From an uncultured Burkholderiales bacterium (GTDB taxonomy: Bacteria > Vulcanimicrobiota > Xenobia > Xenobiales > JADMJV01), in contig CAZYPN010000002.1 of assembly GCA_964649085.1 (NCBI GenBank), forward strand, positions 158,991 to 222,990: a DNA stretch of 64,000 nt, written 5' to 3'. Positions 22,275 to 40,382 of the stretch are shown one piece after another. The position numbers were made by a program, and so were the translations under genes. Numbering within the stretch: the stretch's first letter is position 1; the number at the start of each line of letters is the position of its first letter. The notes under the pieces were generated by a model. That model was not told the origin of the DNA and did not search any database. It worked only from the letters and a program-made list of their open reading frames with translations.

Positions 22275-23624
22275 ATGTTAGAGCAAAAGATTCAGGGCCG
22301 AAAGGCCAACATTACCATTATCGGACTGGGCTATGTGGGGCTTCCACTGGCGCTTGGTTTCGCCCGCAAAGGGTTCAAAGTTTTCGGGCTCGACGACGAT
22401 AGCCCGAAAATTGAGAAACTGCTGTCCGGACAGGACTACATCAACGGCCAGAACGAGGTTGTGCGCCAACTGGTCCAATCGGGCCACTTCCAGCCCACTC
22501 GCAACAGCGAGGTGATCTCTCAATCCGATGTGGTTGTCATCTGCGTTCCCACCCCACTTACCCGCAACCGCGAACCGGATATTTCCTATGTGGAACAGGT
22601 GAGTCGTCGCATCGGTCAGTTGATCCAGGTGGGCAGTCTGGTGGTGCTGGAGAGCACCACCTATCCTGGCACCACCGAAGAAGTGGTGTTACCCGCCATC
22701 CTGGCCGGCAATCGGGTGACTCGAGTCGGGCAAGACTTCCATCTGGCCTTCAGTCCCGAGCGCGTCGACCCGGGCAACCCCTCGTACGACTCCTACAACA
22801 CCACCAAAGTAGTCGGTGGCGTAACGCCGGCCTGCACTCATCTGACCACCTTGCTGTACCAGGCCCTGCTCGACCATCCCGATCTGGTGAAGGAAGCCTC
22901 TTCTTCACGCGCGGCCGAGATGGAAAAACTCTTTGAAAACATCTTCCGCAGCGTCAATATCGCACTGGTGAACGAACTGGCCCTGTTGTGTCGCGAGATG
23001 AACCTGGACGCCTGGGAGATTCTCGACCTGGCCAGTACCAAGCCTTTCGGATTCATGCGATTCAACCCGGGTCCGGGTATCGGTGGGCACTGCATTCCCC
23101 TGGATCCCTTCTACCTCACCTGGAAAGCCCGTGAATTCGATTTCCCCACTCGCTTCATCGAATTGGCCGGAGAACTCAACTCGCGCATGCCCTTCCACGT
23201 GGTCGACCTGGTGGCCGAAGGGCTGGGCTCGCGAGGCCTGGAGGACGCCCGGGTGTTGCTGCTGGGCATGGCCTACAAGAAAGATGTCGCCGACCACCGC
23301 GAGTCGCCATCGCTGAAGGTCTACGACTTGCTGCTGAAGCGGGGCGCACGAGTCGACTACTTTGACCCCCTCATCCCCCAGATCAAAACCGCCGACGGCA
23401 TGCTGCGCTCGGTGGCCGCAGGAAGCTTCCAGGACTATGACTGCCTGGTGTTGATGACCGACCACAGTCAGTTCGACCTCTCCAAGCTGGTGCGTGCCTG
23501 CAAGGTGTTCGTCGACACTCGTGGGGTTGTCCGAGAACTGAATCAGGACTTTGGCGACACCCGCGTGCTGGGGCTGGGCCTACCGGCCCGGCGCACCGGG
23601 CCGCGCCTGCAAGTGGTTCACTGA
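22275..23624 (+). CDS. Nucleotide-sugar dehydrogenase (UDP-N-acetyl-D-mannosamine / UDP-GlcNAc 6-dehydrogenase family)
   Basis: 'ITIIGLGYVGLPLALGFA' Rossmann motif, catalytic 'GGHCIPLDP', C-terminal UDPG_MGDP_dh domain. ATG at 22275 preceded by GAGGTAGGAAC. Confidence 0.85.
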   Translation: MLEQKIQGRKANITIIGLGYVGLPLALGFARKGFKVFGLDDDSPKIEKLLSGQDYINGQNEVVRQLVQSGHFQPTRNSEVISQSDVVVICVPTPLTRNREPDISYVEQVSRRIGQLIQVGSLVVLESTTYPGTTEEVVLPAILAGNRVTRVGQDFHLAFSPERVDPGNPSYDSYNTTKVVGGVTPACTHLTTLLYQALLDHPDLVKEASSSRAAEMEKLFENIFRSVNIALVNELALLCREMNLDAWEILDLASTKPFGFMRFNPGPGIGGHCIPLDPFYLTWKAREFDFPTRFIELAGELNSRMPFHVVDLVAEGLGSRGLEDARVLLLGMAYKKDVADHRESPSLKVYDLLLKRGARVDYFDPLIPQIKTADGMLRSVAAGSFQDYDCLVLMTDHSQFDLSKLVRACKVFVDTRGVVRELNQDFGDTRVLGLGLPARRTGPRLQVVH

Positions 23625-25066
23625 CCGGCCAGCCAACGCGCCCGGTGGCGGAAACACAGCGCCAGCAACCCCATGGCCACTACCCCCAGCACGGCGCTGC
23701 CGGCCCAGTGCCCGGCAGCGCAGGCCCCGCTGCCCCAAAGGACCCGATGGCTGGAAACGACTCCGCTGAGGCTCAATAAGGCCAGCAGATAAGAGAACAT
23801 GGGAACCACCACCATGGCTGCAGACAACCAGTTCCGTCCCAACAGCCACAGCGAGCAGAACACCGTGGCGTAGGTGTCGAGCAGCATCCAGCCCAGGCCC
23901 AGCAACACCAGCACCCAGATCGCGCCAAGAGCTGCCGAAGAAGGAGCCTTGAGGCTCAGCACCATCGTGCCTGGAGCGATCAGCAGCAACCCTTCCAACA
24001 GGCGGGGCTGAAGCCGAACCAGCGCCAGACCATCCACCAGTTGCGTCGGAGTGAAGGAGGTCAGGGTTAAGTCGCGATTTTTCGGACCCAATTCTTGTTG
24101 GATAAAGCTAAGCTGCGATCCCCCGGCGAGCAGCAGAAGAAAGAAGGCTGCGTAGCCAAGGAAGAGCGCACCCAGGAAAAAGTGCAGCTGGCCGGCCACC
24201 GCTCCGAGGATGCCCAGGGCCAGGCAACTCAGGAACCACACCGGCGTACCTCGCCATACCAGGCGACTGCGATGGTAGCGATACAGCAACGGATGTAGTT
24301 GGCCCAACTGCGACCAACGCGAAGAAGGTCGCTGCCGGCAACCCCCTCGCCCCAGCCAGCACCAGGGGCCGCCCGATCCTGCCAGAAGCGGCAGCGGTCC
24401 GCCCCCGCTCTGGAGCCAGCGCAGCGTGAAACGACGGCAGGTCACAGCGCAGGCCAACAGCATTCCCAGAGTGACGGGAATAAGACATCCCGTGGCCAGC
24501 ACGGGCGAAACCAGCGCAAGCAGCTGGAAAGCCAGGCCCATCGCGAACAACATGCCGTAGAAGCCCACCAGATACCCGATGATCAGTCGCATGCTCTGGC
24601 CACGACTGGCCAGTACCTGGGACGCCATTCCCAAATAGTTGCAGAAAAGCGCCAGGGGCAGGAAGGCCATCCACAGCACGGTAGCCCCCACGGCCAGGCA
24701 GGGCTTGCCGCCAAGGACCGCTACCAGGCACGCCGCCAGGACCCAGCGACAGCCCTGCCACCAGCGCAGGGCCAGGAAGGCCGAACCCGTGTCCACCAGG
24801 GCCGAGGGAGAGATGCCCGAAACCAGCAGCTCATCTACGTGCTCAGACACCGAACGCAGGCAGGCCGGAATCGCCGACAAGGCCAGCACCAGGGGGATGC
24901 CTGCCAGGCTCAGCAGTACGAGGACCAGCCCAAATAACAGATCCTCGGAACCGATGGCGCTGACCAGCGCCACCGCAAACAGGGCCCAACTCCAACGGCT
25001 CCAGCGGCGCAGGCGCCCCTGGTAGAGCAGAAATAACGGATTCTCTGGGGACAGCAGGTTGCGCAT
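23618..25066 (-). CDS. Polytopic integral membrane protein, unknown function
   Basis: Very hydrophobic, 12 or more predicted TM segments. Trimmed to the ATG at 25066 to avoid overlap with the FmdB gene. Confidence 0.4.
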   Translation of the reverse strand: MRNLLSPENPLFLLYQGRLRRWSRWSWALFAVALVSAIGSEDLLFGLVLVLLSLAGIPLVLALSAIPACLRSVSEHVDELLVSGISPSALVDTGSAFLALRWWQGCRWVLAACLVAVLGGKPCLAVGATVLWMAFLPLALFCNYLGMASQVLASRGQSMRLIIGYLVGFYGMLFAMGLAFQLLALVSPVLATGCLIPVTLGMLLACAVTCRRFTLRWLQSGGGPLPLLAGSGGPWCWLGRGGCRQRPSSRWSQLGQLHPLLYRYHRSRLVWRGTPVWFLSCLALGILGAVAGQLHFFLGALFLGYAAFFLLLLAGGSQLSFIQQELGPKNRDLTLTSFTPTQLVDGLALVRLQPRLLEGLLLIAPGTMVLSLKAPSSAALGAIWVLVLLGLGWMLLDTYATVFCSLWLLGRNWLSAAMVVVPMFSYLLALLSLSGVVSSHRVLWGSGACAAGHWAGSAVLGVVAMGLLALCFRHRARWLAGQ

Positions 25067-25083
25067 CCCCAGATTATAACACG

Positions 25084-25308
25084 TTAATTCATCGAGCAGA
25101 ATCCCTGGTCGACACAGCTGCCACAGCCCCCCGGGGGACAGCTCATGGGCATCTCCTCGCCCCCCGACTGGGGAGAACTGAAGGCAGAGAACAGCTTGCG
25201 CAGGTCGCTTTGCTGGCAATGAGGACACTCTACGGCGTCCTCAGAACGGCGAAGCAGTTTCTCGAAACGGTGATGACATTGGTTGCAGGCGTATTCGTAA
25301 ATCGGCAT
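25084..25308 (-). CDS. FmdB-family zinc-ribbon protein (putative regulatory protein)
   Basis: 'MPIYEYACNQCHHRFEKLLRRSEDAVECPHCQ' is the canonical FmdB CxxC...CxxC ribbon. Transcribed divergently from the giant coiled-coil gene. Confidence 0.7.
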   Translation of the reverse strand: MPIYEYACNQCHHRFEKLLRRSEDAVECPHCQQSDLRKLFSAFSSPQSGGEEMPMSCPPGGCGSCVDQGFCSMN

Positions 25309-25380
25309 GGGGTAGATTTCTAGATTTCGTTTGGGTTCCTTTTAACGGGAAAACCGCTCAGACTTTCGAAGGCAGCCCCA

Positions 25381-28300
25381 GTGTCCCATCAACAACCCAT
25401 TACGCTGCAAGAGCGGCTAGAGAATATCAAGCAACGAGCCAGCGCGGTACGGGGACAGATGGAGGGGCGTCCCACGCGGACCGATGAAACCCGCGAGGAC
25501 TGGGGAGCCGTCGGTGCCTCGCTGCAGGTGCGCCTGGAGCAGCTGAGCCAGCGGCTACAGGAACGAGACCGTCAACTGGCCGAGCTGCAGCAGCGCCTCA
25601 ACGAGTCCGACTCGGGCCAGGGTCTGCGCCGCAAACAGCTGGAGCAGCTGGCGCAACAGCTCAGCTCCAGCCTGGACGAGAAAAAGGTGCTGCAGGGCCA
25701 GCTTCACTCGGCCGAAAGTCAACGTCAACAGCTGGAACTGCAGCTGCAACTGGTTCGCGACCAGCTGCAGGAGCAGCAAAAATTGCTGGGGCAGAGTCAG
25801 GGGCGGGTGCATGACCTGCGCCAGGAATTGCTGCAGCAGCAACGCCGCGTGCGCGTGGTGGACCGGCTCCAGCTGCAGCTCGACGAAGCCGGTCTGAATC
25901 TCGACGATTTGCTTCATTCGCTGGCCCAACTGGAAGGCGACTCTCCGCTGTTGCAGGCGCTTCGTGACCAGATCGGCCAGCTGCAGGGCCAGCTCGAGGC
26001 CAGTCAGCAGCGAGAACAAAGGCTGCTGCAGCACCTGCAAGATTTGAAAGCCCGCCAACAAGACCTGGAGGCCGAGAAAAACCACCTGGGTTCCGATTTT
26101 GCCGAGCTACACCGCCAGCTGCTGGAAAATCAGCGCGAGCTTGGCCAGGCGCGCGGCGAGCTGAAACGCTGGATGGAGCTGCGCAGCGAGGTCGATCCTG
26201 AACTGCCGCGCGAGGTACAGCATCTGCGCGAGCGCAGCCAGAAGCTCGAAGCCAAGTTGCGTCAGGCCGTGCTGGCGCTGGGCGAGTCGCGCCAGGCCAC
26301 CGAGCAAGAACGAGAAGCGCGCGAACTGGCCGAGCAGCTCCTGGGGAAAAGCCAGCAGCGCCTGGTTCAGCTCGAGGTAGAACTGGACGAGCAGGTGTCG
26401 GCGCTGCAGAACTCGTGGGAAGACGTCAGCCGCCTCGAACAAGAGCTGGAACAAAGCCGCCACCACAATCGCAGTCTGCAACTGCAGGTGGGCTCCTCGG
26501 ACGAACTGCAACAACGCCTACTGCAAAGCGACCAGCAGGCACAGGAGCTACAGCAGAGGCTGGCCCACAGCGACCAGGAAACTCAACAGCTGCGCCAGCA
26601 GCTGCAAGAAAGCCGCCAGCAAGCTGCCAGCTCGGCCCAACAACTGGAAGAACTCGAGCAGCAGCGCAGCCAGCTTGAGCAGCGCCTCGAGCGGGCCCAG
26701 CTGGTGCTTCACGAGCTGCAAAACCGGGCAGCCGAGGGCCAGCAAGAGCAGGTCCTGCGCCAGCAGTGGGAAGAACGCGCCCTCAAGGCCCAGGCTCGCT
26801 TTCACCAGGCGGTCGAGCGTTTGCGTTCGCAAACCGAGCAGCTTCGCCAGCAGCAAGCCGACCTGGAAAACTGGCAATTGCGCTCCGAACAGGTCCAACA
26901 GAGCCTGGAAGACAGCCAGGAGCGCCAGGTTCAGCTGCGGCGACAGCTGGAACGCTGGCAAGAAATCAGTGGTGAGTGGCAGCGGGTTGCCGAGGTTGGC
27001 CAGGAGGGCACGGCCTTCCTTGAGCAGCGGCTGGCCGAGCATCAAGAGCAGCAACTTCAGGCTCAACAGCACAGCCAGGAGTTGCAGCAGGGGCTGATTC
27101 AGTACCAGCAAGATATCCTTCAACTCGGTCAGGCTCTGGCCGAGCTCGAAGAAAGCAACCGCAGCCTGGAAACAGAACTGGGCCTGACGCGCCAGGAGCG
27201 CGACCAGCTTCATCTGCGGGTCGAGCAGCTGGTGGAAGAGGGCCGGGCCCGTCAACACGGGTTTGAGCAACGCTGGGACAAACTCAAGACTCGCCTGGGT
27301 CAGGTCCAGTCGGACCTGGAATACAGCCAGCAACGCGGCCTGATGCTGCAGGACAAACTGCAGCAAGTCGTTGAGGTCGTCCGCGAAGAAAAGCACGCTC
27401 ATCAGCAAACCCGACAACAAAAGGACCAGCTTCAGGAAGCCCTGGCCCAACTGCAAGAGAGCGCTCGCCAGAAGGACTCGCTGCTCGAGCAGCAGAGACA
27501 AGAACTCGACACCCAATCCATGGCTCTGGAAGAGTCCTGGGAAGAGGCCCATCGCCTGGGGGAAGACCTTGAACGCGAGCGACAGTCCGCGGCTCAGCTT
27601 CGCCAGCAGTTGCAAGAGCTGCGAGCCCAGCAAGATAGTTTGCGGGAAGAGCGCGATGCTCTGCGCGAGCATTTTGAAGAACTGCTACAACAAACCGATC
27701 TCGAGCGAGAGGAGTCGGCCCGAGAACTACAGCGCCAGCTGGAACTCAATCACGAGCAAACCCGTGCGCTACAGCTTCGACTGAAAGAAGTTAGCGAAGA
27801 ACTGCTGTCGGTTCAGCAACGGTTGCAAAAAGCCCAACAAAAGCTCTTGCAGGCCGTAGACAGCCTGCGTCAAGAGCGCCTGCTGCGCCAGGAACTCTCC
27901 CAGCAGATCGATGAGCGCGACCTGATGCTGGAAGAACAGACGCAGCTGCTGGCTCAGCGTGCCGAAGAACTGGCCAGCGCCCAACACCGCTGGTCGTCCA
28001 CCGACCAGCAACGTCAGCAGCTGCAGGCCAACCACCTGACCACCGTGGCCGAACTGGAGGCCCTGCGCCAGGAGTACGAAACCCAGGTGCTGGCCCTGGA
28101 AGAGTCATGGGAGGAAGCCAGTCGCCTTCAAGAGTCGCTCGACAGCGAGCGCACTCGGGCCCAGGCTCTGGAGCAGCAATGGGCGCAGGCCCAACAGGCC
28201 CAGGTTCAACTGCTGTCACAGCTCGACCAGCTGCAGGCCGCCTATTCCGAACTGCAGAGTCGCCACAGCGGTGCGCTGGAGCAGCAACAGCAGGAGCAGC

Positions 28301-31300
28301 AAGCCCTGGAGCAGCTCCATCTCCAAACCACCACGCTTCAGGAGCATCTCAAGCACCGGGTGGACCAACTGCAGCAGCTGAAAGCCTTGCGCGATCAGAG
28401 CCAGCAGCGGGCCCTGGCCTTGGAAGAGAAGCTGCGCCAGGCGGTGGTTCGGCTGGCCGAGGAAAAGCAGGCCCGCCAACAGCTGGCCCAACAAAACGAC
28501 CAGCTGATCGCTCAGCTCGCTCAGCTGGAACAAGAGGCCCGTCAGTCGCAAAGCGATCTGGTGGCCGTGCGCCAGGAGTTGGAAACCCAGCTCATGGCCC
28601 TGGAGGAGTCCTGGGCCGAGAGCAGTGCGCTTCAGGCCGCATTGAACGAGGCACGGGCCGGAGCCGAACAAGAACGAAAAGCCCACGAAGAAGCCCGCGC
28701 ACGCGTCGAAATCTTGCAGAAAGCTCATCAGCACGAAGTTTCCCTGAGAGAAGAGCTGGAGCAGGAGCTGGAAGAACTGCTACAGCTTCAGCTGCAGCTT
28801 GAGGAAGAAAAACAATCTCATCGCCACACCGGCCAGAACCTCGAACAGGTCAGGCAACGCCTGCTGGCTGTGGAACAGGAACGTGACCAGAGCGAGCAAC
28901 GCAGCCAGGCCCTCGAGGCCAAGGTGCTGCAGCTGGCCGAGCTGCTCAAGCAGCATCAGCAGCTGCGCCAGGCCGAGAAGCTCAAGGCTCAGGATCGCCT
29001 GCAGAAGTTCAGCGATGAAGTCCGCCAGCTGCGCCAGCAGCTGAGCACCAGCGAGGAAGAGAGCGCTACCCAGCAGCTGGCCCTCCAGGAAGCCTGGTCG
29101 GAAATGTCTCAGCTGCAAGAACAGCTGGAAGCCGAGCAGCAGAAACTTCTACAACTGACCGAAGAACGGGGCCGCCTCCAGGTCGACATGGCCGAGCTGC
29201 TGGCCCACAGCCAGTTGGAGAGCCAGCGCTCGCAGCAGCAGATCGGGGAATTACGCACAGAAATCCAGGCCCTGCTGGGGCAACGCCACAAGCTGGTGGA
29301 CGAGCTCAACACGCGCGGTGGCCAGCTTAAGCAACTGGCCTCCAACCAGGGAGCCTTGCTCGACCAGGTCAAGCGACAACATCAGCAGATCGACACCTTG
29401 CGAGCCCAGATGGAGGCTCGCGAGGACGATGTGGCTGGCCTGCAGCGCCAGCTCGAAGAGGAAGAGCAGCAGCGGCGACATCTGCTGGACGAACTGGAGG
29501 TGGCCACTCAGGCCAGCGACCTGCTGCAGCAAGAGTTGGGCGAGCGCGAGAACGAACTGCAATCGCTGCACGAGCGGCTGACTCGACTCGACGCGGCCCT
29601 GAATCAGGCCCAACAACAGGTGTCTTTGCTGGAAAGCCAGCGCGAGGCCTCGCAGGCGCAACTGCAGCAGCTCAGTCACAACCACGCTGAACAGATGGAC
29701 GAGCTGACGCGTCAGCTGCAGCGGCGCGAGCAGGAACTGGAAACGCTGCGCCAGATCGAAGCCGGTGCCCAGCAGGCGCTGGCCCAGGCCCAAGAGGAGC
29801 TCAACCGCTCGCAACATCAACAGCAGACACAGCAGCAACAGCTTCAGCACCATCGCCAGGAACAAAGCCGTCTGCAAGAAACCGTAGAACGCCTGGGACA
29901 GCGCTTGAGCCAGGTGGGTGGGGCCTTCCAGCAAGCCAAACTGCAGCTGGCGGCCCGCACCCAGCAACTGCAACAGGTTCAGGACAGTCGCCAGCAACTT
30001 GAGGAAGAGCTGGTTCTGGCCCAGGCACACGGCCAGCGAGAAACGGTCCGCGCCGATGAACAGCTCGAGCGGGCCGATCTGCTAGAAGCCCGACTGGAGC
30101 AGCTGACCGCCCAACAGCAAGAGCTGCTCGTCCAGGTAGAGCAGCTGCATCAACAACGCGTACCGCGGGAAGAATGGCAGGCCCTGGAGCGGCAGGCACG
30201 GGCCGGCGACCAGGAAATTCAAGGCCTGAAGGCTCAGCTCACCGACCTGCAACTGGCCCTCCAGCAGTCGGAAGAGTGGCGAGAGTCGCAGCAGCGCGAG
30301 CGCGAGGCACTGGAGTCGCGCCTCGAACGCACCCGCCAGGAGCTGGTGCAGGCCGTCGAGATCCAACAGGGATTGAAGGAACGCCTGCTGAGCGTGGTGG
30401 AAAAATTTCGCCACAGCGAGGCCCTGCGCCAGCGCCAGCAAGAGGAGTTGGAGGGCCTTCAGGAAGAGCGCCGGAACTGGCAGCTGCTCGAGCAAGAGTT
30501 GCAAGGGCGCGTCGTTCAGCTAGAGCAGATGGCCCTGGAGGGGCACCAGCAGCTCTCGCAGGAGCGCCAACAGCACGAACAACAGCTGCTCGAACGCGAC
30601 CAGCTGCTGGAGAGCTTTCGCAACGAGCTCGAGCAGGCCCGCGACCAGGTCGATCAGCTGGCTCGTGAGCTGATCGAGGCCCAGGATCGGACCTTCCAGC
30701 TGCAACAGGAGCTGGAAGTCAACGAAGACGAGTCGCAACGCGATCGAACGCGACGCGAAGAACTCAACAGCCTGGTCGCCAGTCTCGAACAACAGCTGCG
30801 CCAGCTCGGCGAAGAATCGGCCAGCCGCCAGGAGCAGCTGGAGGACCAGCTGGTTCATCAGGAAGGTCAGCTGAAGTCGGGACAGCAGGCTCTGCTGCAG
30901 GCTCAGAGCCAGCTGCGTCTGCTGCAGACCGAGCGAGACAAGCTGGTGCGGGCCTATCAGCAAAGCCGTCAGGCCCTGATCGAACACCAGCAGCAAGCGG
31001 TGGAGCAGCAGCAAAAGTGGGAACAGGTTGCCAGTGAACTGCGGGTAACTCGAACCCAACTCGGCAAAACTCAGGAAGAGCTTCAGCTGGCCCATCTGCA
31101 GGTGGAAACCCTCGAGGGCGACCTGCAGCGCCTCGAGTCGCAGCGAGATGAACTCGCCCAGCGTTCCGACTCGCGTTTCCAGGAATATGAAAACGAACTG
31201 GCTCAGCTGACGGTAGAGCTTACTGAGAAGCGCCAGGAAGCCTATCGCCTGCGCAACAGCGGCGAAGGTCTGCGCCAGGAAAACCAGTCGCTCACGCGGC

Positions 31301-34300
31301 GACTGGAAGAAACCCTGCGGGAAAAGACCGAGCTGACCCAGCGACGCGAGTTTGAAACGCAACAGTTCAAAAGCGTGCTTGAGCAGCTGCTCGGTCAACG
31401 CCAGCTGCTGGAGAGCAAGCTCAAAGAAGTCGCGGCTCAGCGCAAAGAATTCCTGCTGGAACTGAAGCGCGAGCGCCAGCTCAGCAACCAGCAGCAACAG
31501 GACCTGACCCAGCTGCAAACCCGCTTTGACGAATCGCAGGCCCTGCTGCAGCAACAGCTGCAGCAGCTCGAGCAAGTACGTGGGTATTTCGACGAAGCTC
31601 GCCAGCAAGGCCAGCAGCTCCAGCAGCAGCTACAGCAAGAATTGGGGCGTTCCAGCCAGCTGGAAGAGCAGCTGCACCATCACCAAGAGGGCTGGCAACG
31701 CGACCGCGGCCAGCTGGAACAGGAACGGCAACAGCGGCAACGGCTCGAGGTTGAGGTCGAAGCTGGCCAACGTCAGCGCGGCCAACTGGAAAGCCAGCTG
31801 GACCAACAGCGTGCTCAAATCGAGGGCCTCGAAGTCGAGCTCACCAGGCTGCAGGCAGAGTCCCATCAAGATCAGCAGCGTCTGAAGCAGGAGGCCGAGC
31901 TTCTGCAGCGCCAGCTGGAGCAGCTGAGCAGCCAGCGCCAGGGCCTGATGGACAAGCTCAAAACCGTGGCCGGGGAAAGGGCCGACCTGAAGCAGGCGCT
32001 GCAGGCCCAGCAGGAAGAGCTGGCCGAAATCCAGCTGCGCCGTGAAGTGCTGGAACTGCGCCTCGTCCAGGTAGAGGGCGAACGCGACCTGCTGCAGTCG
32101 GAATCGGAGCAATACCGGCAGCGGGTCGACGAGCTGGAAGAGCGCCTGGAACGCAGCGCCTCCGACTTCCAACAGGCCCAGGAACAGCTCCAGTTGCTGT
32201 CGGAACTGCGCGCCCAGGGTGCGCGCCAGGAACAGCAGCTGCAGGCCCTGGAGTGGGGGCGGGAAGCAGACGGACAAAAGATCGGCGAACTGCAGCAACG
32301 GCTGGAACAGGTTGACCAGCAACGCCAGGCCCTGGAAGTGGAACTGGCCCAGGCACGTGGCCGCCTGGAAGAAGCCGCCGTTCGTCGTGAGGAGCTGCAG
32401 TCGGAGATCGAAGACGCGGCTCGTCAGCTGCAGGGCCTGCGTTTTGAAGCCTCCGAATTGCGCCAGTCCCAGCAGAAGTCCAAGGAGTCGCTGCTGCTCT
32501 CGCAGCAAAAGGTCGAACAGCTCGAGGCCGAGCTCGGTGAACTGCGCACCCAGCATCAACAGCTTCAGGAACAATCGGCTCGCAACGAGGAAGAGCTGCG
32601 GCTTCTGCTGCGCCAGAGCCAGCAAGAATCCGAAGAACATCGCCAACTGTCCGAGGAACTGCTGCAACAGACACGAGAGCAGTTGGAACAGAAGGAAGCC
32701 CACCTTCTGAAGCTGGTCGATACGCTGGGTCGCGCCAAGGACCGGATGCGCGACCAGAAGGCGCGCGTGGCCGAACTGGAAAGCGAGCTGGCACAGGTCC
32801 GTGAGCAGGCCCAGGAGCATTTTCAGAGACTGATTCGCGTGACCCGCGAACGAGAAGATCTGTCGGAACTGAAGCAGCGCGAATTGGGCGAGCTGCAGCG
32901 CCAGCTACAGGCCGCCAGCGCCGAACTGGAACAGCGCCAGCGCGAACTGCTGGCGCTGGAGGCGCAAAACCAGCTGCAGCAGCGCGAACTGGTCGAGCTG
33001 AGCCGGCAGGAAGTCGCTGCCGAAGAACAGCGCACTCTGCTGCAGTCGCAACTCTTTGAACTGGAACAACAGCTGCGCTCGGCAGCCGAAGACAAGCAGC
33101 AGCTGGAGCGAGAACGAGACAGCTGGCAAGACAGGCAAGAACAAACCCAAAACGAGCTGGAGCAGCTGTCCATTGAGCATCGCGAGGTGCTGGATTCGAG
33201 GCAACAGCTCCAGGCAGAGCTGGAGCGCCTCTCGGTCCAGCTGAGCCAGCTGGAAGAGCACTCGAGCAGCGATTTGCAGCAGCGAGAACAGCAGATTCAA
33301 AAGCTCGGCGAGGCCTATGCCAAAATCCGTCAGCGCTTCGTAGAAAACCAGCAGCAACTGGCCGAGGCCCAGGCCGAGCAGGCCGCGCTGCGGCAGCGAA
33401 ACGAGCAGATCGAGGCAGAGCTGGGCCAGGCTCATGAACGATTGGAGCAGTTGCAGAGCGAAGCTCGCCAGCTCGAGGCTCAGGTCCACGAGCGCCAACT
33501 TGAACTGCAAGATCAGCAGCAGCAGCTAGAGCAACAGCGCAACGAACTGACCCGCCTTGGCCAGGAGAGCGAGAAGCAACGTTTCGAGCTGCAGCGACTG
33601 GCCCCGCTGGAAGCCCAGAACCAGGCTCAACAACGCGAGCTCATGGCCCTGAGCCGACAGGAAGCCGAGCTGGAGGAGCAGCGACAGCGGCTGCAGTCGA
33701 ACCTGGAACAGCTGAACCTGCGCCAGCAGAAGCTCGAGGGTGAACTGGCCGAGAGCGAGCGACGCCATTCCAAACTACAGGCCGAGCACTTAAAGCTGCA
33801 GCAAAAGCAGGCCACGGCCGAGGCCCAACTCGAGAGTCAACAGCAGGAAGTCGAGCGACTGCAGACCGAGCACCGCCTGGCCCGGCGCGAGGTTGAAGAG
33901 CTTCAAGAGCAACTCCAGCAGCGCGAAGTATCGACCCAAAAGCTGGGCGAGGCTTATGCCAAAGTGCGCCAGAAGCTGGTAGAAACCCAGCAGCAACTGG
34001 CCGAAGCTCAGGCCGAGGCCGAGCAGCAACAACGCCGCGCCGACCGTCTTGAGGACGATCTGGGCGGGCTGAAAGAAGAGCTGCGACTGGCCACTTTCGA
34101 GCGCAGCGCCGCTGAAGAACGCTGGCGAGGCGCCAGTCAACAGGTGCAGCAGGCGGGCGAAGAGCGCGAACGTCTGTCGCAGCTCAACGAAGAACTCAAG
34201 TCGAATCTGCGCCACACCCAGCAACTGCAGCAACAGGGCGAAGCCGACCTGGTCGAACTGAAGTTGCAGCTGCAGCAGGAACAGGAGCGAGCCGGGCAGC

Positions 34301-37300
34301 TGCAGCAAAAATTGCAGCAGGCCATTGGACGCCTGCAGCACACCAAACAGGCACTGCAGCAACGTCAGGACGAGTTGCTGGCCGGCAAAGAGGAAAAACT
34401 CCAGCTGGAATCCGAGCTGGAACAGCGCCAGCAAGCCTATAGCGAGCTGGAGCAGCAGTTGCGCCAGGCCCAGCAGCGACTGGCGGAACTGGAACCCGAA
34501 GTTGAAGGGCAGCGCGGGTTGCGGCTCGAGCTTCACGGCCTGCGAAGCCAGCTCGACAGCCTGCAGCACCAGCTGCAGCGAGCCCAGCAGCGAGAACAAG
34601 CCCTGGAAAGCCGGCTGGAGCAGGCCCAGGTTCAAGAACAGGAGCTGACCGGCAAGCTGCAACGCAGCCAGGCCAAAGAGCGCGAGCTGGAGCATCAACT
34701 GCAACGCTCGCAACAGCGAGAGCGAGAGATCGATAGTCAGCTGCAACGGGCGGGCAGCCGCGAGCGCGACCTGGAACAACAGCTGCGAGCGGGTGTCGAG
34801 CAAGAAGAGCGTCTGCGGGCCCAGCTCACCCAGGCCTGGAGCGATCTCCAGCAATCCGAACTGCTCCAGCAGCGGCTGCAGGACGAATTGAGCCAGTCTC
34901 GCTCCCAGGGCTCGCGACGTGAGAAGCAGGTGGCCGGGCTGGAAGAGCAGCTGGCCGGCCTTCAGGAATCGCTCGAGCGGGCTCGGCTGGATGGCGAGAA
35001 GCAGCTGGAGCAACATCGCGAGCGCGAGAGCCAGCTGCTGGAACAGCTAGAAAAGCTGGGAGAAGCCCTCAAGCTGCACCGCAGCAAGGCCAACGAGGCC
35101 CTGGCCGGGCTGAAACAACGCAGCGAAGAGGTCAGCGGTGAGCTGCAACTCTCGCTCCAGGAGCGCCTGGAGCTGCGCACACGGCTCGACCAGCAGGAAC
35201 ATCTCCTGGAAGAGCTGCACCACGAAGTGGACACCCGGCGCCAGCGCGAGGCCCACCTCGAGCAGGCTCTGGCCGAGGCCCGGCGGCGCGGCGGCGAACT
35301 TCAGGCGCGAGCCGGCGAGCTGGCACAATCGCTGGACGAGAGCCAGAACTTCCGGCGGCTGTTGCAAGAAGAGCTGGCCCAACAGCGTGAGCAGAGCCAG
35401 CACGACCTGGACACCCTGAATGCTCGCCTGCATGAGGCCGAGTCACGCGGCCGCGACCTGGAGGAAACCCGTTCCTTACTGCTGGAACAAGAGCAGAAGG
35501 CCCACGAGTTGAGCCTGAAACTGCGCGAGTTCCAGCAAAGCGCCATCCTTCAAGAAACCGAGCTGCAGCAGCTTCGGCAATCGCTCAAGCACGAGGAAGG
35601 CAAGCTTCAACAGCAGCAAAAGGCCCAACTCCACCAGCAGGAAATGCACCAGCAAAGGGTGCTGCAACTGCAACAGGACCTGGCCGACTTGGAAGGGCGA
35701 CTCGAAGAAAGCGAGCGTAACAACCACAAGCGTGAGCAGATCATCGGCCAGCTCAAGCAGCGCCTCGGCCAGGCGATGCAAGACCTCAGCCAGCGCCAGA
35801 CCGAGCTCCATGAGTCGCAACTGAGCCTGGAGAGGGCAGGGCGCGAACTGGAACTGAGTCGCAGCGACGGCCTGGGCAAGGAAGCGCGCATCGCCGAACT
35901 CGAGCAAGACCTCGAGCAGCGCATCCAGCGTGCCAATTCTGCCCAGCAGGAAGTCGAGAAGCTCTGGCAGCGCCTGCAGCGCGAAGAAGAACAGCGAGCC
36001 CAGCTGGCCTCCGATCTGGAAAGGCACCAGCAAGAAGCCGACCGGTTGCAGCAGCAGCTGGATGAAGCCACGCTGGAAAAACGCCAGCTGTTGCTCGACC
36101 TCGACGACGCCGCCAATCAAAAACTGCAGCTGGCGCTGGAGCTCGATCGCTCACTGGAGCAAAAGACCGCGGAAATTCAGCGCTGGCAGAAGCTGCAGGA
36201 AGAACAGCAACGCCGCCAGGACGACCTGGAAGGTCGCCTATTACTGGCCCAACAGCGAATCGAGGTCCTGACCGGAGAGCTGGAAGAACGCGAAGCTCGC
36301 CTGCAGGCTGAACGCAAGTCGGCCCAGGACCGCCAGCAAGAGTTGCGGGGCCGACTGGAACGCCAGGTGCTGGAGGCGCAGGCCCAGCAGCTGGAGCGCG
36401 AGGCCCGAGTGCAGCAACTCGAGCGCGAACAGCGCAAACAAGCCGAAGAGCTGGAACGTCAGCTGCAGGAGTTGCAAACGCAGCGCTCGGCCCTCGAAGG
36501 CGAGCTGGCCAGCCTGAAGGCCCTGGGCCAGTCGAGCCAGGCCAGCTACCAGGCCCGAATCGAGCAGATGCAGCGCGAATACGAGGGTCTGCAACGCCAG
36601 CTCAGCGAGCAGGAAGAAGAGGTTCATCAGCAACGCCTGCGGGTCTCCCAGCTGGAGGCCGATCAGGTGCTGCTCAAGCAGGCACTGCACCAGTCGGAAA
36701 CCGCCGCTCAGCAGCAACTACAGCGTCTGGAACGCCTGCAACTGGAGCGCGAGGCTCTGGAACAGCAGTTGCGTCAGCAGGAAGAGCTGGCCCACAAACT
36801 GTCGCAGCGGGCCGAGGCCGCCGGGCAAGAAGGCGAAGAGCTGCAGCGACGTCTTGAAGACGAGCAGCTCTTGCGACAGAGCCAGTGGGACGACATGAAC
36901 ACGCGCCTGGTTGAGGCCGAACGCAGGCACGCCGAGAGCGAAAGGGCGCGCGAAGAGCTGAGCCATCGCCTCAATGACGGTCAGCTGAATTACGAGATGC
37001 AGCTGTCCGAGCTGCGCCGTCAGCTCGACCAGGCTCGACTGCGTCTGGAGCGCGAGGGCGAATTTGTGCAGGGCCTGCAGGAGCGCCTGAAAGAGTCGCA
37101 GGCAGCCCAAATCCGTTTACAACAGGAGCAAGGCGAGGGGCGCCAGCAGTTGCTCGAGGCCCAGGCCGAACTGGAGCGTGCCCAGCAGGCGATGGAACGC
37201 ACCCTGAGCGAGATGCAGCTGCAGGAACGCAAGGTGGAACTGAGTCGCGAGTCTCAGGAACAGCAAAGACAGCTGTTGTTGCAGCGGGAAAGCGAGTTGC

Positions 37301-38109
37301 ACCAATTGGAAGAGGTGCGGGCCCGCCTGGACCTGCAGGTTGCCGATCTGGACCAGGAACGCGCCCGACTGCAGAAAGAGTCGGATCAACTCCGTCAGGA
37401 GCTGCAGACCTCGGGGCACCGCCTGCGCGAACAGGAAGAACGAGCACGTCTGCTTCAGGCCCAGCTCAACGTGGCCATGCAGCAGGCCGAAGAGGCCGAT
37501 CACCTGCAGCTCATGCAGATGCAGTATGAGCAAGACCTTGCCCGTCTACGCGGAGAACTGGACCAGAAACAGGCCGAAATCGACCAGCTGCAAGCCCAGG
37601 CCCGCAGCCTGTCTCGATTGCCCAACGAACTCAGCGACCGGTCGCGTCGACTGGAAGAACAGCAGGCCGAAATCCAACGGCACCGCAGTCGGGTGGACGA
37701 ATTGGAGTCGGAACTCTCGGATAGCCGTTTCTGGCGCCGAGATGCGGAAACGCGCCTGGAACGCAGCCAGCAATCGCTGGCCGAGGCCCAACGCAGCCTG
37801 GAAGCCGCCCGGCTGGAACGCGAAGAGCTGCGACGACAACTCGACGAACTGCGCGGCCAGGATGTTCGCACCCCCTACCTGCGCGCCCAGGAAGAACTGG
37901 CCGCCCTGCGTCAGGAACTGGCCCAGGCCCGAAAGCGAGAGGAACGACCGCCCGAGCCCACCCCCGAGGCCAGCCCCCCGCCACCCCGCTCGCGCCCCAC
38001 CAGCCGTAAAGCGCCTGCCAGCAAGCCTCAGGCCTGGACCCTGTTGGAGGGCTCCGAGACCAGCAGCGATCCGGCCGGTGGTGGTCTGGAGTTACCGGGG
38101 TTCTCGTGA
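25381..38109 (+). CDS. Giant (4242 aa) coiled-coil protein, Q/E/L/R-rich, modular repeats, Pro-rich basic C-terminal tail
   Basis: Uninterrupted 12,729-nt ORF. Heptad-like Leu spacing throughout, e.g. 'LQQRLNESD...LEQLAQQL'. No enzymatic motif. C-terminus 'RKREERPPEPTPEASPPPPRSRPTSRKAPASKP...'. Start GTG at 25381 (uncertain; next ATG at 25459). Confidence 0.8.
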   Translation: MSHQQPITLQERLENIKQRASAVRGQMEGRPTRTDETREDWGAVGASLQVRLEQLSQRLQERDRQLAELQQRLNESDSGQGLRRKQLEQLAQQLSSSLDEKKVLQGQLHSAESQRQQLELQLQLVRDQLQEQQKLLGQSQGRVHDLRQELLQQQRRVRVVDRLQLQLDEAGLNLDDLLHSLAQLEGDSPLLQALRDQIGQLQGQLEASQQREQRLLQHLQDLKARQQDLEAEKNHLGSDFAELHRQLLENQRELGQARGELKRWMELRSEVDPELPREVQHLRERSQKLEAKLRQAVLALGESRQATEQEREARELAEQLLGKSQQRLVQLEVELDEQVSALQNSWEDVSRLEQELEQSRHHNRSLQLQVGSSDELQQRLLQSDQQAQELQQRLAHSDQETQQLRQQLQESRQQAASSAQQLEELEQQRSQLEQRLERAQLVLHELQNRAAEGQQEQVLRQQWEERALKAQARFHQAVERLRSQTEQLRQQQADLENWQLRSEQVQQSLEDSQERQVQLRRQLERWQEISGEWQRVAEVGQEGTAFLEQRLAEHQEQQLQAQQHSQELQQGLIQYQQDILQLGQALAELEESNRSLETELGLTRQERDQLHLRVEQLVEEGRARQHGFEQRWDKLKTRLGQVQSDLEYSQQRGLMLQDKLQQVVEVVREEKHAHQQTRQQKDQLQEALAQLQESARQKDSLLEQQRQELDTQSMALEESWEEAHRLGEDLERERQSAAQLRQQLQELRAQQDSLREERDALREHFEELLQQTDLEREESARELQRQLELNHEQTRALQLRLKEVSEELLSVQQRLQKAQQKLLQAVDSLRQERLLRQELSQQIDERDLMLEEQTQLLAQRAEELASAQHRWSSTDQQRQQLQANHLTTVAELEALRQEYETQVLALEESWEEASRLQESLDSERTRAQALEQQWAQAQQAQVQLLSQLDQLQAAYSELQSRHSGALEQQQQEQQALEQLHLQTTTLQEHLKHRVDQLQQLKALRDQSQQRALALEEKLRQAVVRLAEEKQARQQLAQQNDQLIAQLAQLEQEARQSQSDLVAVRQELETQLMALEESWAESSALQAALNEARAGAEQERKAHEEARARVEILQKAHQHEVSLREELEQELEELLQLQLQLEEEKQSHRHTGQNLEQVRQRLLAVEQERDQSEQRSQALEAKVLQLAELLKQHQQLRQAEKLKAQDRLQKFSDEVRQLRQQLSTSEEESATQQLALQEAWSEMSQLQEQLEAEQQKLLQLTEERGRLQVDMAELLAHSQLESQRSQQQIGELRTEIQALLGQRHKLVDELNTRGGQLKQLASNQGALLDQVKRQHQQIDTLRAQMEAREDDVAGLQRQLEEEEQQRRHLLDELEVATQASDLLQQELGERENELQSLHERLTRLDAALNQAQQQVSLLESQREASQAQLQQLSHNHAEQMDELTRQLQRREQELETLRQIEAGAQQALAQAQEELNRSQHQQQTQQQQLQHHRQEQSRLQETVERLGQRLSQVGGAFQQAKLQLAARTQQLQQVQDSRQQLEEELVLAQAHGQRETVRADEQLERADLLEARLEQLTAQQQELLVQVEQLHQQRVPREEWQALERQARAGDQEIQGLKAQLTDLQLALQQSEEWRESQQREREALESRLERTRQELVQAVEIQQGLKERLLSVVEKFRHSEALRQRQQEELEGLQEERRNWQLLEQELQGRVVQLEQMALEGHQQLSQERQQHEQQLLERDQLLESFRNELEQARDQVDQLARELIEAQDRTFQLQQELEVNEDESQRDRTRREELNSLVASLEQQLRQLGEESASRQEQLEDQLVHQEGQLKSGQQALLQAQSQLRLLQTERDKLVRAYQQSRQALIEHQQQAVEQQQKWEQVASELRVTRTQLGKTQEELQLAHLQVETLEGDLQRLESQRDELAQRSDSRFQEYENELAQLTVELTEKRQEAYRLRNSGEGLRQENQSLTRRLEETLREKTELTQRREFETQQFKSVLEQLLGQRQLLESKLKEVAAQRKEFLLELKRERQLSNQQQQDLTQLQTRFDESQALLQQQLQQLEQVRGYFDEARQQGQQLQQQLQQELGRSSQLEEQLHHHQEGWQRDRGQLEQERQQRQRLEVEVEAGQRQRGQLESQLDQQRAQIEGLEVELTRLQAESHQDQQRLKQEAELLQRQLEQLSSQRQGLMDKLKTVAGERADLKQALQAQQEELAEIQLRREVLELRLVQVEGERDLLQSESEQYRQRVDELEERLERSASDFQQAQEQLQLLSELRAQGARQEQQLQALEWGREADGQKIGELQQRLEQVDQQRQALEVELAQARGRLEEAAVRREELQSEIEDAARQLQGLRFEASELRQSQQKSKESLLLSQQKVEQLEAELGELRTQHQQLQEQSARNEEELRLLLRQSQQESEEHRQLSEELLQQTREQLEQKEAHLLKLVDTLGRAKDRMRDQKARVAELESELAQVREQAQEHFQRLIRVTREREDLSELKQRELGELQRQLQAASAELEQRQRELLALEAQNQLQQRELVELSRQEVAAEEQRTLLQSQLFELEQQLRSAAEDKQQLERERDSWQDRQEQTQNELEQLSIEHREVLDSRQQLQAELERLSVQLSQLEEHSSSDLQQREQQIQKLGEAYAKIRQRFVENQQQLAEAQAEQAALRQRNEQIEAELGQAHERLEQLQSEARQLEAQVHERQLELQDQQQQLEQQRNELTRLGQESEKQRFELQRLAPLEAQNQAQQRELMALSRQEAELEEQRQRLQSNLEQLNLRQQKLEGELAESERRHSKLQAEHLKLQQKQATAEAQLESQQQEVERLQTEHRLARREVEELQEQLQQREVSTQKLGEAYAKVRQKLVETQQQLAEAQAEAEQQQRRADRLEDDLGGLKEELRLATFERSAAEERWRGASQQVQQAGEERERLSQLNEELKSNLRHTQQLQQQGEADLVELKLQLQQEQERAGQLQQKLQQAIGRLQHTKQALQQRQDELLAGKEEKLQLESELEQRQQAYSELEQQLRQAQQRLAELEPEVEGQRGLRLELHGLRSQLDSLQHQLQRAQQREQALESRLEQAQVQEQELTGKLQRSQAKERELEHQLQRSQQREREIDSQLQRAGSRERDLEQQLRAGVEQEERLRAQLTQAWSDLQQSELLQQRLQDELSQSRSQGSRREKQVAGLEEQLAGLQESLERARLDGEKQLEQHRERESQLLEQLEKLGEALKLHRSKANEALAGLKQRSEEVSGELQLSLQERLELRTRLDQQEHLLEELHHEVDTRRQREAHLEQALAEARRRGGELQARAGELAQSLDESQNFRRLLQEELAQQREQSQHDLDTLNARLHEAESRGRDLEETRSLLLEQEQKAHELSLKLREFQQSAILQETELQQLRQSLKHEEGKLQQQQKAQLHQQEMHQQRVLQLQQDLADLEGRLEESERNNHKREQIIGQLKQRLGQAMQDLSQRQTELHESQLSLERAGRELELSRSDGLGKEARIAELEQDLEQRIQRANSAQQEVEKLWQRLQREEEQRAQLASDLERHQQEADRLQQQLDEATLEKRQLLLDLDDAANQKLQLALELDRSLEQKTAEIQRWQKLQEEQQRRQDDLEGRLLLAQQRIEVLTGELEEREARLQAERKSAQDRQQELRGRLERQVLEAQAQQLEREARVQQLEREQRKQAEELERQLQELQTQRSALEGELASLKALGQSSQASYQARIEQMQREYEGLQRQLSEQEEEVHQQRLRVSQLEADQVLLKQALHQSETAAQQQLQRLERLQLEREALEQQLRQQEELAHKLSQRAEAAGQEGEELQRRLEDEQLLRQSQWDDMNTRLVEAERRHAESERAREELSHRLNDGQLNYEMQLSELRRQLDQARLRLEREGEFVQGLQERLKESQAAQIRLQQEQGEGRQQLLEAQAELERAQQAMERTLSEMQLQERKVELSRESQEQQRQLLLQRESELHQLEEVRARLDLQVADLDQERARLQKESDQLRQELQTSGHRLREQEERARLLQAQLNVAMQQAEEADHLQLMQMQYEQDLARLRGELDQKQAEIDQLQAQARSLSRLPNELSDRSRRLEEQQAEIQRHRSRVDELESELSDSRFWRRDAETRLERSQQSLAEAQRSLEAARLEREELRRQLDELRGQDVRTPYLRAQEELAALRQELAQARKREERPPEPTPEASPPPPRSRPTSRKAPASKPQAWTLLEGSETSSDPAGGGLELPGFS
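32950..34030 (+). repeat. Two diverged ~640-655-nt direct repeats inside the giant coiled-coil gene
   Basis: 'EAQNQ(L/A)QQREL(V/M)(E/A)LSRQE' at ~32957 and ~33610. 'QKLGEAYAK(I/V)RQ(R/K)(F/L)VE(N/T)QQQLAEAQAE' at ~33298 and ~33938. Confidence 0.5.
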
Positions 38110-39107
38110 GGCAGCTGCTGCTTCAGTCACCGATCTTTCTCGAGCACGACACCGGTCGTCACGTGGAGAACGCCGCAAGGCTGCAAGCCATTCAACAGCA
38201 GCTCGTAGGTCTGGAAGGCTGGCGGTCTGCCAGCCCCCGAGCGGCCAGCGACGACGAACTGTTGCTGGCTCATCAACCCTCCCACCTGCAACACCTGCTT
38301 CAGCTGCAAGCCGAGGGTGCGCGCTGCGTCGATGCCGACACCGTCCTTTCGGCACGCAGCCTGGAGGCAGCCCGTCTGGCCGCAGGTGGGGGGCTGCTGC
38401 TGGTGGACGAGGTGCTGAGTGGCGAGGCCGACCTGGGCTTCGCCCTGGTGCGCCCCCCGGGCCACCACGCCACGCCCGACCGCGCCATGGGCTTCTGCCT
38501 GTTTTCCAATGTGGCGCTGGCCGCCCTCTACGCCCGCCAACGTTGGAAGCTGGAGCGCATCTTCATCCTCGACTGGGATGTACACCACGGCAATGGCACC
38601 CAGGACTGCCTGCTGGAGCATCCCCAGGTCACCTTTTGTTCGCTGCACCAATGGCCGCTTTACCCGGGTTCGGGCTGGCACGACGAGCGCGGCCAGGGCA
38701 ATCTGTACAATCTGCCGATGCCGGCCGGCTGCGGCGACGCCGAGTACTTATTTGCGCTGGAAAAGCTGGTTGGACCCTTGCTGGACAAGGTCCAGCCTCA
38801 ACTGATCCTGCTTTCTGCCGGCTACGACGCCCACCAGCGCGACCCGCTGGGTTCGATGGAAGTCACCACCAACGGCTTTGCTGCCATGGCCTCCTGGCTG
38901 CGCCAGCGAGCGACGCAATTGCGGGCACCTTTATTGGGCTTTCTCGAGGGAGGCTACGACCTGCGCGGACTGTCCGAATCGGTAGCGGCTACGCTGCAGG
39001 CCTGGTCTCGGCCGGGCCCGCTCAGCCCGGTGGAGGCTCGGGCATTGAGCAGTGGGGTCCTGCAGAGGATCTACCAGGCTCAGGCAAGCTGGCAACTCGA
39101 GGGCTGA
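38106..39107 (+). CDS. Histone deacetylase-family enzyme (HDAC/AcuC/acetylpolyamine amidohydrolase class)
   Basis: 'LVRPPGHHA', 'GFCLFSNVALAA', 'ILDWDVHHGNGTQD', 'SAGYDAHQRDPLGSMEVT' are the HDAC-fold catalytic and Zn-binding blocks. GTG start overlaps the giant gene TGA (GTGA at 38106-38109). Confidence 0.85.
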   Translation: MRQLLLQSPIFLEHDTGRHVENAARLQAIQQQLVGLEGWRSASPRAASDDELLLAHQPSHLQHLLQLQAEGARCVDADTVLSARSLEAARLAAGGGLLLVDEVLSGEADLGFALVRPPGHHATPDRAMGFCLFSNVALAALYARQRWKLERIFILDWDVHHGNGTQDCLLEHPQVTFCSLHQWPLYPGSGWHDERGQGNLYNLPMPAGCGDAEYLFALEKLVGPLLDKVQPQLILLSAGYDAHQRDPLGSMEVTTNGFAAMASWLRQRATQLRAPLLGFLEGGYDLRGLSESVAATLQAWSRPGPLSPVEARALSSGVLQRIYQAQASWQLEG

Positions 39108-39242
39108 TCTGGATCATCGTTCTCCGCTTTGGGGCCGACTATAGTCCACAGGGCTCTGGCAGGAGTCCGCTTCCGTCGCTCGATATCCTGGTAACGGCTT
39201 CGCTTAGAGCGATGACGGGGGTCACTTACCTGGAGGTAACTT

Positions 39243-40382
39243 ATGAAGACAACAACGCGCAATCTTTTCGGAGGTCTGGCCCTCACGGCGGCCCTGGTTT
39301 CCGGCTGCGGCGACGAGGAATTCGCCGCCTTCCTGGGACGTCAGCTCAATTTTCTGCTGGTGCCCAACACCGCCAGCACCAACGTAGACATTCGCCTGCT
39401 CGAACAGGGCAGCGGCATTCCCGGCCCCAATGTGCAGGTAGCCACCGGCAACCACCCCACCATGGTCGCCATTACGCCCAATGGCGCTTTAGGCTATGTG
39501 CCCAACGCCGACGAGGTGGGCAGCATTACGGGCTACAACATCGACGCTTCCAACAGCAACTTTGTGCAGGCCCCCGGCTCGCCTACCCCGGTAGACTTTC
39601 CTCCCTGCACCTTGAACATCCACCCCAGCGGGCGCTTTATGTATGCCGTGGGCGACAATGACATCACCGGTTTTGGCATTGGCGAAACCGGCGCGCTCAC
39701 TCCTCTGGCGAATACCAGTTTCGAATTCGGTGGCAAGGCTACGGTAGGCATTACGCCAGGCGCCTTCTTCCGCAATGGTCAATTCTTCTTCCACAACGCT
39801 GGCTTTGAGGGAGTCGTGGCCTTCGAGGTCAACGGCGACACCGGGGCCCTTACCGGTGACTTGCCCGTAATCCAAGGCAAAGGTCCGTCGACCTCCATTG
39901 CCCGGCTGCCGAACACCGAAATTCTGCTGGTAGCACGACGAGATTTTGGCCAGGAAGATGCCCGCAGTGAGCAACTGCAAGGCCACAGCGACGGCGTGCT
40001 CGAGAGTTACCGGATCGAGGCCAATGGTAGTGCAACCTTCCTCGACTCCGAACCCTTCCAGGCCGACCCGATGGGCGTGGTGGCCAGCACACGCGGCTTT
40101 GCCTATGTGGGCACCAGGTCTACCGGCTCGGGGGTGCTGGCCTTCCAGGTGGACGCCAACGGCAACATCTCCAACGAGGTGGCCTTTGCCGCCGGTGCCG
40201 AGGACAGTTCCTACCCGGGCGTGGACCCCTCGGGCAACTTCGTCTTCGTTTCGGCCCAGAATACCAATCAGGTGTTCGGATTTCGAATCGACGACGTGGG
40301 CAACATGATCGCGCTGGCCGGTTCACCGTTTGCCGGTTACCTGGCCCCCGGCGTGCCCACCCTGGCCTTCTATCAACTGTAG
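39243..40382 (+). CDS. Lipoprotein, 7-bladed beta-propeller lactonase-like (Pgl/3-carboxymuconate cycloisomerase-like fold)
   Basis: Signal peptide plus lipobox 'LTAALVSGCG'. Repeated propeller-like segments 'FMYAVGDNDITGF', 'FVFVSAQNTNQVFGFRID'. SD 'GGAGGT' 7 nt upstream. Confidence 0.5.
   Translation: MKTTTRNLFGGLALTAALVSGCGDEEFAAFLGRQLNFLLVPNTASTNVDIRLLEQGSGIPGPNVQVATGNHPTMVAITPNGALGYVPNADEVGSITGYNIDASNSNFVQAPGSPTPVDFPPCTLNIHPSGRFMYAVGDNDITGFGIGETGALTPLANTSFEFGGKATVGITPGAFFRNGQFFFHNAGFEGVVAFEVNGDTGALTGDLPVIQGKGPSTSIARLPNTEILLVARRDFGQEDARSEQLQGHSDGVLESYRIEANGSATFLDSEPFQADPMGVVASTRGFAYVGTRSTGSGVLAFQVDANGNISNEVAFAAGAEDSSYPGVDPSGNFVFVSAQNTNQVFGFRIDDVGNMIALAGSPFAGYLAPGVPTLAFYQL

Follow-up and report, generated by a model that had tools for sequence, protein, structure and literature searches.

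The 64,000-nucleotide stretch analysed here (the window) comes from a lineage of the Eremiobacterota, order Xenobiales, and carries on its forward strand two adjoining genes that are the subject of this report. The first is a 12.7-kb open reading frame (ORF; 25381..38109) for a giant protein of 4242 residues with a predicted coiled-coil structure, and the second (38106..39107) specifies a putative Zn-dependent deacylase of 333 residues, belonging to the histone deacetylase (HDAC) family and resembling the class II enzymes HdaH and HDAC6. The GTG start codon of the HDAC gene (38106-38108) lies over the TGA stop codon of the giant gene (38107-38109), so that the two share the tetranucleotide GTGA (38106..38109, + strand; gttctcGTGA at 38100-38109) and no intergenic space separates them. 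In the HDAC frame, a TAA is located at 38007-38009 and none of the codons ATG, GTG or TTG occurs between it and position 38106; the second Met is residue 128, which is within the catalytic core, and the orthologous HDACs align from residue 1 with the N-terminal pattern MxxLLLQSPxFLEH. The GTG at 38106 is therefore the sole possible start and the overlap is forced. An earlier note on this DNA had described such an overlap correctly, while placing the HDAC start at 38090, 16 nt upstream of the true one. The only Shine-Dalgarno-like element of the HDAC gene that could be read from the sequence is a GGAG (38089..38092, + strand), poorly spaced at 13 nt upstream of the GTG. The only non-coding gap that could hold a promoter for the unit is the divergent intergenic region of 152 bp upstream of the giant gene (25229..25380). 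Around the giant 5' end and the giant/HDAC junction no sigma-70-like consensus was found, and a terminator consensus scan of the same two places found none; neither negative carries information, the promoter consensus being of no diagnostic use in this phylum. A 773-codon open frame (37340-39661, + strand) covers the entire HDAC gene in a different frame; it is regarded as a shadow ORF of GC-rich DNA rather than a gene, as are the many minus-strand ORFs of at least 100 codons inside the giant gene. NCBI and Logan contigs also encode an HDAC identical to that of the window.

The HDAC matches the Pfam family PF00850 (E value 3e-85; 286.6 bits against a cutoff of 27.9) over profile positions 1-296 of 298. 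Its sequence includes the motifs RPPGHH (116-121), GFC (129-131), D156/D158/H160, D241, and EGGY (281-284), all of which are invariant in a 50-sequence alignment of homologues, as well as the gatekeeper motif DPLG. In the alignment with HDAC6, H120/H121 correspond to the double-His, D158/H160/D241 to the zinc ligands, and E281-G-G-Y284 to the segment bearing the catalytic Tyr, while the gatekeeper D-P-L-G aligns to the Leu of catalytic domain 2 (CD2). The AlphaFold (AF2) model has a pLDDT of 94.2 and a pTM of 0.94. Foldseek assigns it, with a probability of 1.00 and TM scores of 0.84-0.93 to HDAC6, HdaH and Kdac1, to the arginase/deacetylase alpha/beta fold; its top matches include CD1 and CD2 of HDAC6, and the root-mean-square deviation from 5ji5 and 5zmp is 1.8-2.0 Å. 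Among solved structures the best sequence match is HDAC6 (E value 1e-98, summed over both of its domains), and further relatives are the "lysine deacylase" 5zmp (E value 2e-60), HdaH from strain FB188 (E value 7e-58), 5ji5 and Kdac1. Class II enzymes (HDAC6, HdaH, Kdac1, 5zmp, 5ji5, HDA15 and HDAC4/7) thus top the rankings by both sequence and fold.

Based on these rankings and on the RPPGHH and EGGY motifs, the enzyme was assigned to class II, cluster 1, following the criteria of Graf et al. 2024 (PMC11532494). With the cluster 1 deacylases, i.e., HdaH from Bordetella/Alcaligenes FB188, PA3774 from P. aeruginosa, Kdac1 from A. baumannii, 5zmp and 5ji5, it shares the fold, a single catalytic domain of ~300-370 residues and the motifs RPPGHH, GFC, D-x-H...D and EGGY (E values 1e-54 to 1e-60). 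HDAC6, a cytoskeleton-associated enzyme of class IIb, is its best sequence match and stands among its top fold matches, and its PLG is that of CD2; unlike HDAC6, the window enzyme has a single domain and lacks the zinc-finger and dynein-binding parts. This similarity is one of class II ancestry, not of orthology. With its full set of catalytic motifs, this class II HdaH/HDAC6-like deacylase is predicted to be active. The earlier note had called it a Zn enzyme of the HDAC/AcuC type. The first half of that label stands; the second does not, because HDAC6, HdaH, Kdac1, 5zmp and 5ji5 lead the sequence and fold matches. AcuC is class I-like (cluster 2c; PMC11532494) and is encoded in the acu operon; it was rejected as an identity for the window enzyme, whose best matches are of class II and whose neighbours are the giant gene and a lactonase-like gene.

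A second functional suggestion, that the enzyme acts on polyamines as an acetylpolyamine deacetylase like ApaH or HDAC10, draws on membership of the same superfamily, on the generic label "AcuC-like" attached by the JGI, and on the report that bacterial deacylases of this family can be dual-function (PMC11532494). In the same survey the gatekeeper motif is PEG in the polyamine deacetylase HDAC10, PKG in CD1 of HDAC6 and PIS in bacterial ApaH, which belongs to cluster 4 and has extended L1/L2 loops. The gatekeeper of the window enzyme is PLG and neither PEG nor PIS; the protein begins only 18 residues before the Pfam domain, with no room for an N-terminal L1 hairpin; and the match to the acetylpolyamine amidohydrolase 3men (E value 9e-31) is far weaker than those to HdaH and 5zmp (1e-58 to 1e-60). 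These sequence features indicate that the enzyme is probably not a polyamine deacetylase, and we give an ApaH- or HDAC10-like role very little credence. A preference for proteins over polyamines is likely.

The giant protein consists of 20% Gln, 17% Leu, 16% Glu and 11% Arg with 2.7% Lys, and its hydrophobic residues recur with a period of 3.506 residues (power 55316 against a shuffle maximum of 10732, ~5x). Only 23 of its 4242 residues are Pro, and it includes Pro-free runs of 1318, 1146 and 1041 residues. No transmembrane-like segment, no Walker A motif (GxxxxGK[ST]) and no Pfam domain were found in it. Judged by its composition and periodicity, the protein is a coiled coil with an extended heptad-repeat rod. 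The rise of a coiled coil is ~0.15 nm per residue, and if the giant formed one continuous coiled coil it would be ~0.6 micrometres long. Relationship to SMC/Rad50 was considered and rejected, since there is no Walker A motif and the NCBIfam SMC and Rad50 models match coiled-coil segments only, with scores far below their cutoffs (253 bits against 567 for SMC). A comparison with PDB sequences gave no relatives for either end of the giant. The motif ALEESWEEAxRL occurs five times (residues 341, 715, 905, 1073 and 1234; about nt 26400-29100), ~160-370 residues apart, and their presence points to long repeats within the N-terminal third of the protein; a self-BLAST of the giant for internal repeats, run with composition correction, returned zero rows.

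Towards its C-terminus (37948-38106, residues ~4190-4242) the giant changes to a Pro-rich linker, which is followed by a basic SRK/KRK patch and then by a tail of the form W[ST]LL[DE] ... GGLE[LM]PGF(S) (38035..38106, + strand). The corresponding region of L001 is located at ~8500-8640. The tail is conserved in all eight giants compared (window, L082, L001, L002, L083, L089, L092 and L093), and no second copy of the motif occurs within the window. It may resemble C-terminal docking peptides such as the ...DDDIPF of SSB or the LDIPAF of FtsZ. The giants range in size from 4230 to 4965 residues and form a rare family: an exhaustive search of 1.84 billion representative proteins with the last 400 residues gave 8 matches, and a profile of the tail recovered six fragments only. 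In the ENA contigs L092 (9292-9362) and L093 (1706-1722), gene calling splits the giant gene into two parts close to the 3' end at a stop or a frameshift, which may be genuine or an assembly error. Like the bacterial coiled-coil-rich and intermediate filament-like proteins crescentin, FilP and Scy and the cyanobacterial coiled-coil-rich proteins (CCRPs; Springstein et al., PMC7002697), the giant is a cytoplasmic protein with long heptad repeats and no enzymatic domains. It differs from them in being 3- to 10-fold longer, in sharing no detectable homology with any of them (Pfam gave no match), and in ending with a distinctive conserved peptide.

The closest HDACs in species-representative genomes come from the Vulcanimicrobiota/Eremiobacterota, and their gene neighbourhoods were compared with that of the window. 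In a neighbour-joining tree, the window HDAC falls in a small clade (P0001-P0003) that is sister to a larger one. In the window clade, the HDAC gene directly follows the giant gene; in L082, whose HDAC is 79% identical, the junction reads TCATGA, i.e., an ATGA overlap in place of the GTGA of the window. A 1403-bp contig probably combines a tail of the giant (P0128) with an HDAC of 87% identity (P0002). In the sister clade, one gene for a transporter of the major facilitator superfamily (MFS) is present between the giant and the HDAC genes. This order of giant, MFS and HDAC is found on the P0005 contig (HDAC identity 61%; giant of 4680 residues), in L001 (60%; giant extending past the locus start), in L083 (59%; 4965 residues), on the P0013 contig (59%; 4230 residues), in L002, which is the same as L084 (58%; 4714 residues), in L092, and in L089, the one further locus that a metagenome scan yielded, where the tail of the giant is visible. 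In L093 a giant tail is followed by an MFS gene inside which the contig ends. Thus, the HDAC gene lies downstream of the giant in 9/9 contigs that have the giant tail and visible downstream DNA, with at most one gene between them, and the expectation that homologous giants would be followed by an HDAC was borne out, directly or after the MFS gene. HDAC identity between the two clades is only 58-61%.

What follows the HDAC gene differs among lineages: a lactonase-like gene in the window, and elsewhere an S9 peptidase, a gene of 298 codons followed by an S9 peptidase, a convergent GT4 gene (L083), or a PAS response regulator. The HDAC is therefore the last gene of the conserved block. Since the pairing recurs wherever the giant is found in the Xenobiales, the association of giant and HDAC is a real conserved operon association specific to this order.

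The MFS genes of the sister clade (L001, 8646-10004; L002, 8625-10004; L083, 8661-10004; L089, 1243-2622; L092, 9976-11475) abut both of their neighbours, with a giant/MFS gap of 1-3 nt or a TAATG overlap. Their product is an OPA-family transporter with an acidic central loop, similar to GlpT, UhpC and PgtP (E value about 1e-105, below curated cutoffs). A stop/start overlap is kept in the orthologous loci, between giant and HDAC in the window and L082, and between MFS and HDAC (GTGA or ATGA, 4 bp) in L001, L002, L083, L084 and L092. The overlap and the nature of the transporter raise the alternative that the MFS protein is the true partner of the HDAC, which would deacetylate an imported acetylated small molecule, e.g., an organophosphate or an amine, and that the window lineage lost the transporter. 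The tree fits either a gain or a loss of the MFS gene, since the clades with and without it are sister groups and the outgroups lack both this gene and the giant. Small-amide hydrolases with the HDAC fold do exist, and the propanil and dimethoate hydrolases are present among the PDB matches of the window enzyme. Nevertheless, the window clade (window, L082 and probably the P0002 contig) has the HDAC with no MFS gene, none being found in the whole 64 kb of the window. The pairing of MFS and HDAC occurs in 0 of the other 78 genome loci, a subclade in which the HDAC is unlinked from the giant is also devoid of the transporter, and the active-site motifs RPPGHH, EGGY and PLG are those of robust lysine deacetylases. 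A partnership centred on the transporter is therefore very unlikely.

A much more serious contender, though itself somewhat improbable in our judgement, is that the enzyme is a general-purpose deacylase and a bystander, the gene order having been inherited within one order and the overlap being the ordinary packing of a compact GC-rich genome. A number of observations speak for this explanation and weigh against a functional tie between the HDAC and the giant. Overlaps of 4 bp are found at 6/23 same-strand junctions in the window, a count that uses crude gene calls, and at 4/6 in independent calls on the identical contig L081; because they make up about a quarter of the same-strand junctions in the window, the GTGA overlap is no rarer than would be expected by chance in this genome. 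In most of the relatives, moreover, the HDAC start overlaps the stop codon of an unrelated transporter gene and not that of the giant. All instances of the pair are within a single order, and for this reason the gene order may simply have been inherited. Nested in the linked clade is a subclade (L003/P0014, L090/P0016 and L091/P0017) that has the HDAC without an adjacent giant or MFS gene; the HDAC gene is preceded by a CHASE2 Ser/Thr kinase gene in L003 and L090 and by a gene of 265 codons in L091, where the GT4 gene downstream, known from L083, is the one neighbour retained. The more distant orthologues P0019, P0023 and L004 are without a coiled-coil giant, and no such giant was found beside the HDAC relatives in any of 76 loci from other taxa (0/76). 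No column of the HDAC alignment separates the giant-linked from the unlinked lineages. In view of the MFS overlap in most relatives, the giant-free subclade and the absence of a discriminating column, the description in the earlier note of an HDAC dedicated to the scaffold was too strong.

The lysines of the giant point in the same direction. It was correctly observed before that the protein uses Arg far more than Lys (468 Arg and 116 Lys). The Lys content of 2.7% is the same as the background, however, the 28 other proteins of the window having 2.6%, and it is Arg alone that is enriched (11.0% against 7.0% in the same 28 proteins). Across orthologues, 35-50% of the Lys residues of the window giant are retained, as against 53-67% of Arg, 54-58% of Glu and 56-68% of Leu, and the best-conserved 400 residues include zero invariant Lys, with Lys and Arg swapping freely. 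The idea that acetyl-lysine sites would be sparse and specific thus finds no backing in either the abundance or the conservation of Lys. As for an enzyme that might write such marks, a tblastn search with the GNAT acetyltransferase of L083 revealed no similar gene in the window.

Set against the bystander explanation is the architecture of the block itself. Its right-hand end lies precisely behind the HDAC although what follows takes at least five different forms, the HDAC gene abuts the giant unit with or without the MFS gene, and all nine of the giants are accompanied by it. Protein divergence between the two clades is ~40%, a distance at which gene order outside operons is usually scrambled. 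The 9/9 result and the sharp right-hand boundary of the block make a functional tie the most economical reading; the restriction of the pair to a single order, the transporter gene in between and the subclade with an unlinked HDAC weaken it. Overall, we regard some functional tie between the HDAC and the giant as plausible while stopping just short of calling it probable.

We propose the following arrangement for this functional tie. The operon of the Xenobiales would consist of the giant gene, an OPA-type MFS gene in the sister clade, and the gene for the class II Zn-deacylase, with the HDAC gene being transcribed from the promoter of the giant. The earlier note had claimed both co-transcription and coupled translation from the overlap. 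The tightly packed unit on which this was based is present, and one transcript and coupled translation are what such packing suggests; co-transcription of the two genes is very likely. Because the Shine-Dalgarno element of the HDAC gene is weak, translation probably proceeds by termination-reinitiation, i.e., the HDAC would be made mainly by ribosomes terminating on the upstream ORF. In the window this mode would tie the output of HDAC to the completion of a 4242-residue chain, so that the giant would set an upper limit on the amount of enzyme, which would emerge near the giant chain as this is being finished. The HDAC might then remove acetyl groups from protein lysines in a role functionally linked to the giant. 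Its substrate would be the giant or the proteins that assemble there; alternatively, the giant would serve as a dock for the enzyme, perhaps via the conserved C-terminal tail. That the giant itself is the substrate is unlikely. It is more doubtful still, though worth stating, that the giant is a cytoskeletal or scaffold element whose assembly or clients are controlled by reversible lysine acetylation through a co-expressed HDAC6-like enzyme recruited by the tail. That a class II deacylase is paired with a long structural protein brings to mind HDAC6 and its cytoskeletal clients, by analogy only.

Several neighbouring genes may be recorded. Divergent from the giant gene, and sharing with it the 152-bp intergenic region, is a gene (23618-25228, - strand) for a hydrophobic protein of 536 residues that has no Pfam, NCBIfam or PADLOC match and is probably a polytopic membrane protein. 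Farther upstream are located the gene for a TamB/AsmA/DUF748-family protein of 1916 residues (14817-20567, + strand) and, in the same orientation, a carbamoyltransferase gene (13021-14727) and a gene encoding an Hpt domain (12242-13012). A second ORF with weak coiled-coil-type Pfam matches only (FliT, ATG17-like) is present at 52566-54572 (- strand); its product of 668 residues contains 5.1% Lys and 5.1% Arg, unlike the giant. In L083, the GNAT acetyltransferase gene (12080-12661) is situated ~1 kb downstream of the HDAC, beyond the convergent GT4 gene, and its product had no tblastn match in the window or the other compared loci. None of the PADLOC models matched the giant, the HDAC or the neighbours, and a reading of the locus as a defence system was consequently dropped.

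No report of an operon combining an HDAC with a giant coiled-coil protein was found in the searched literature, which agrees with the earlier note that this is not a described pairing. None of the cluster 1 enzymes has been reported in such an operon, and the only operon mentioned by Graf et al. 2024 is acuABC (PMC11532494). The B. subtilis acuABC operon is comparable in that the operon around a classical Zn-deacylase gene gives a hint of the enzyme's client (PMC11532494). It differs in that AcuC is class I-like, whereas the window enzyme is of class II and has no AcuA, AcuB or AcsA neighbours. The enzyme described here adds a member to a known family, while the giant family is without a characterised relative.

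If the arrangement merely reflects inherited gene order, the locus would amount to a curious giant gene followed by an unremarkable deacylase of the HdaH type. Physiological substrates are known for few of the bacterial classical deacylases (PMC11532494), and the combination of a conserved operon with a single unusual client candidate offers a concrete and testable substrate hypothesis for a bacterial HDAC. The locus also draws attention to a family of coiled-coil proteins of 4200-5000 residues, unrelated to characterised cytoskeletal proteins, in a largely uncultured phylum. Should the giant indeed be a cytoskeletal or scaffold element under the control of a deacylase recruited by the conserved tail, the giant and its enzyme would together constitute a bacterial counterpart of the relationship between HDAC6 and the cytoskeleton in eukaryotes.

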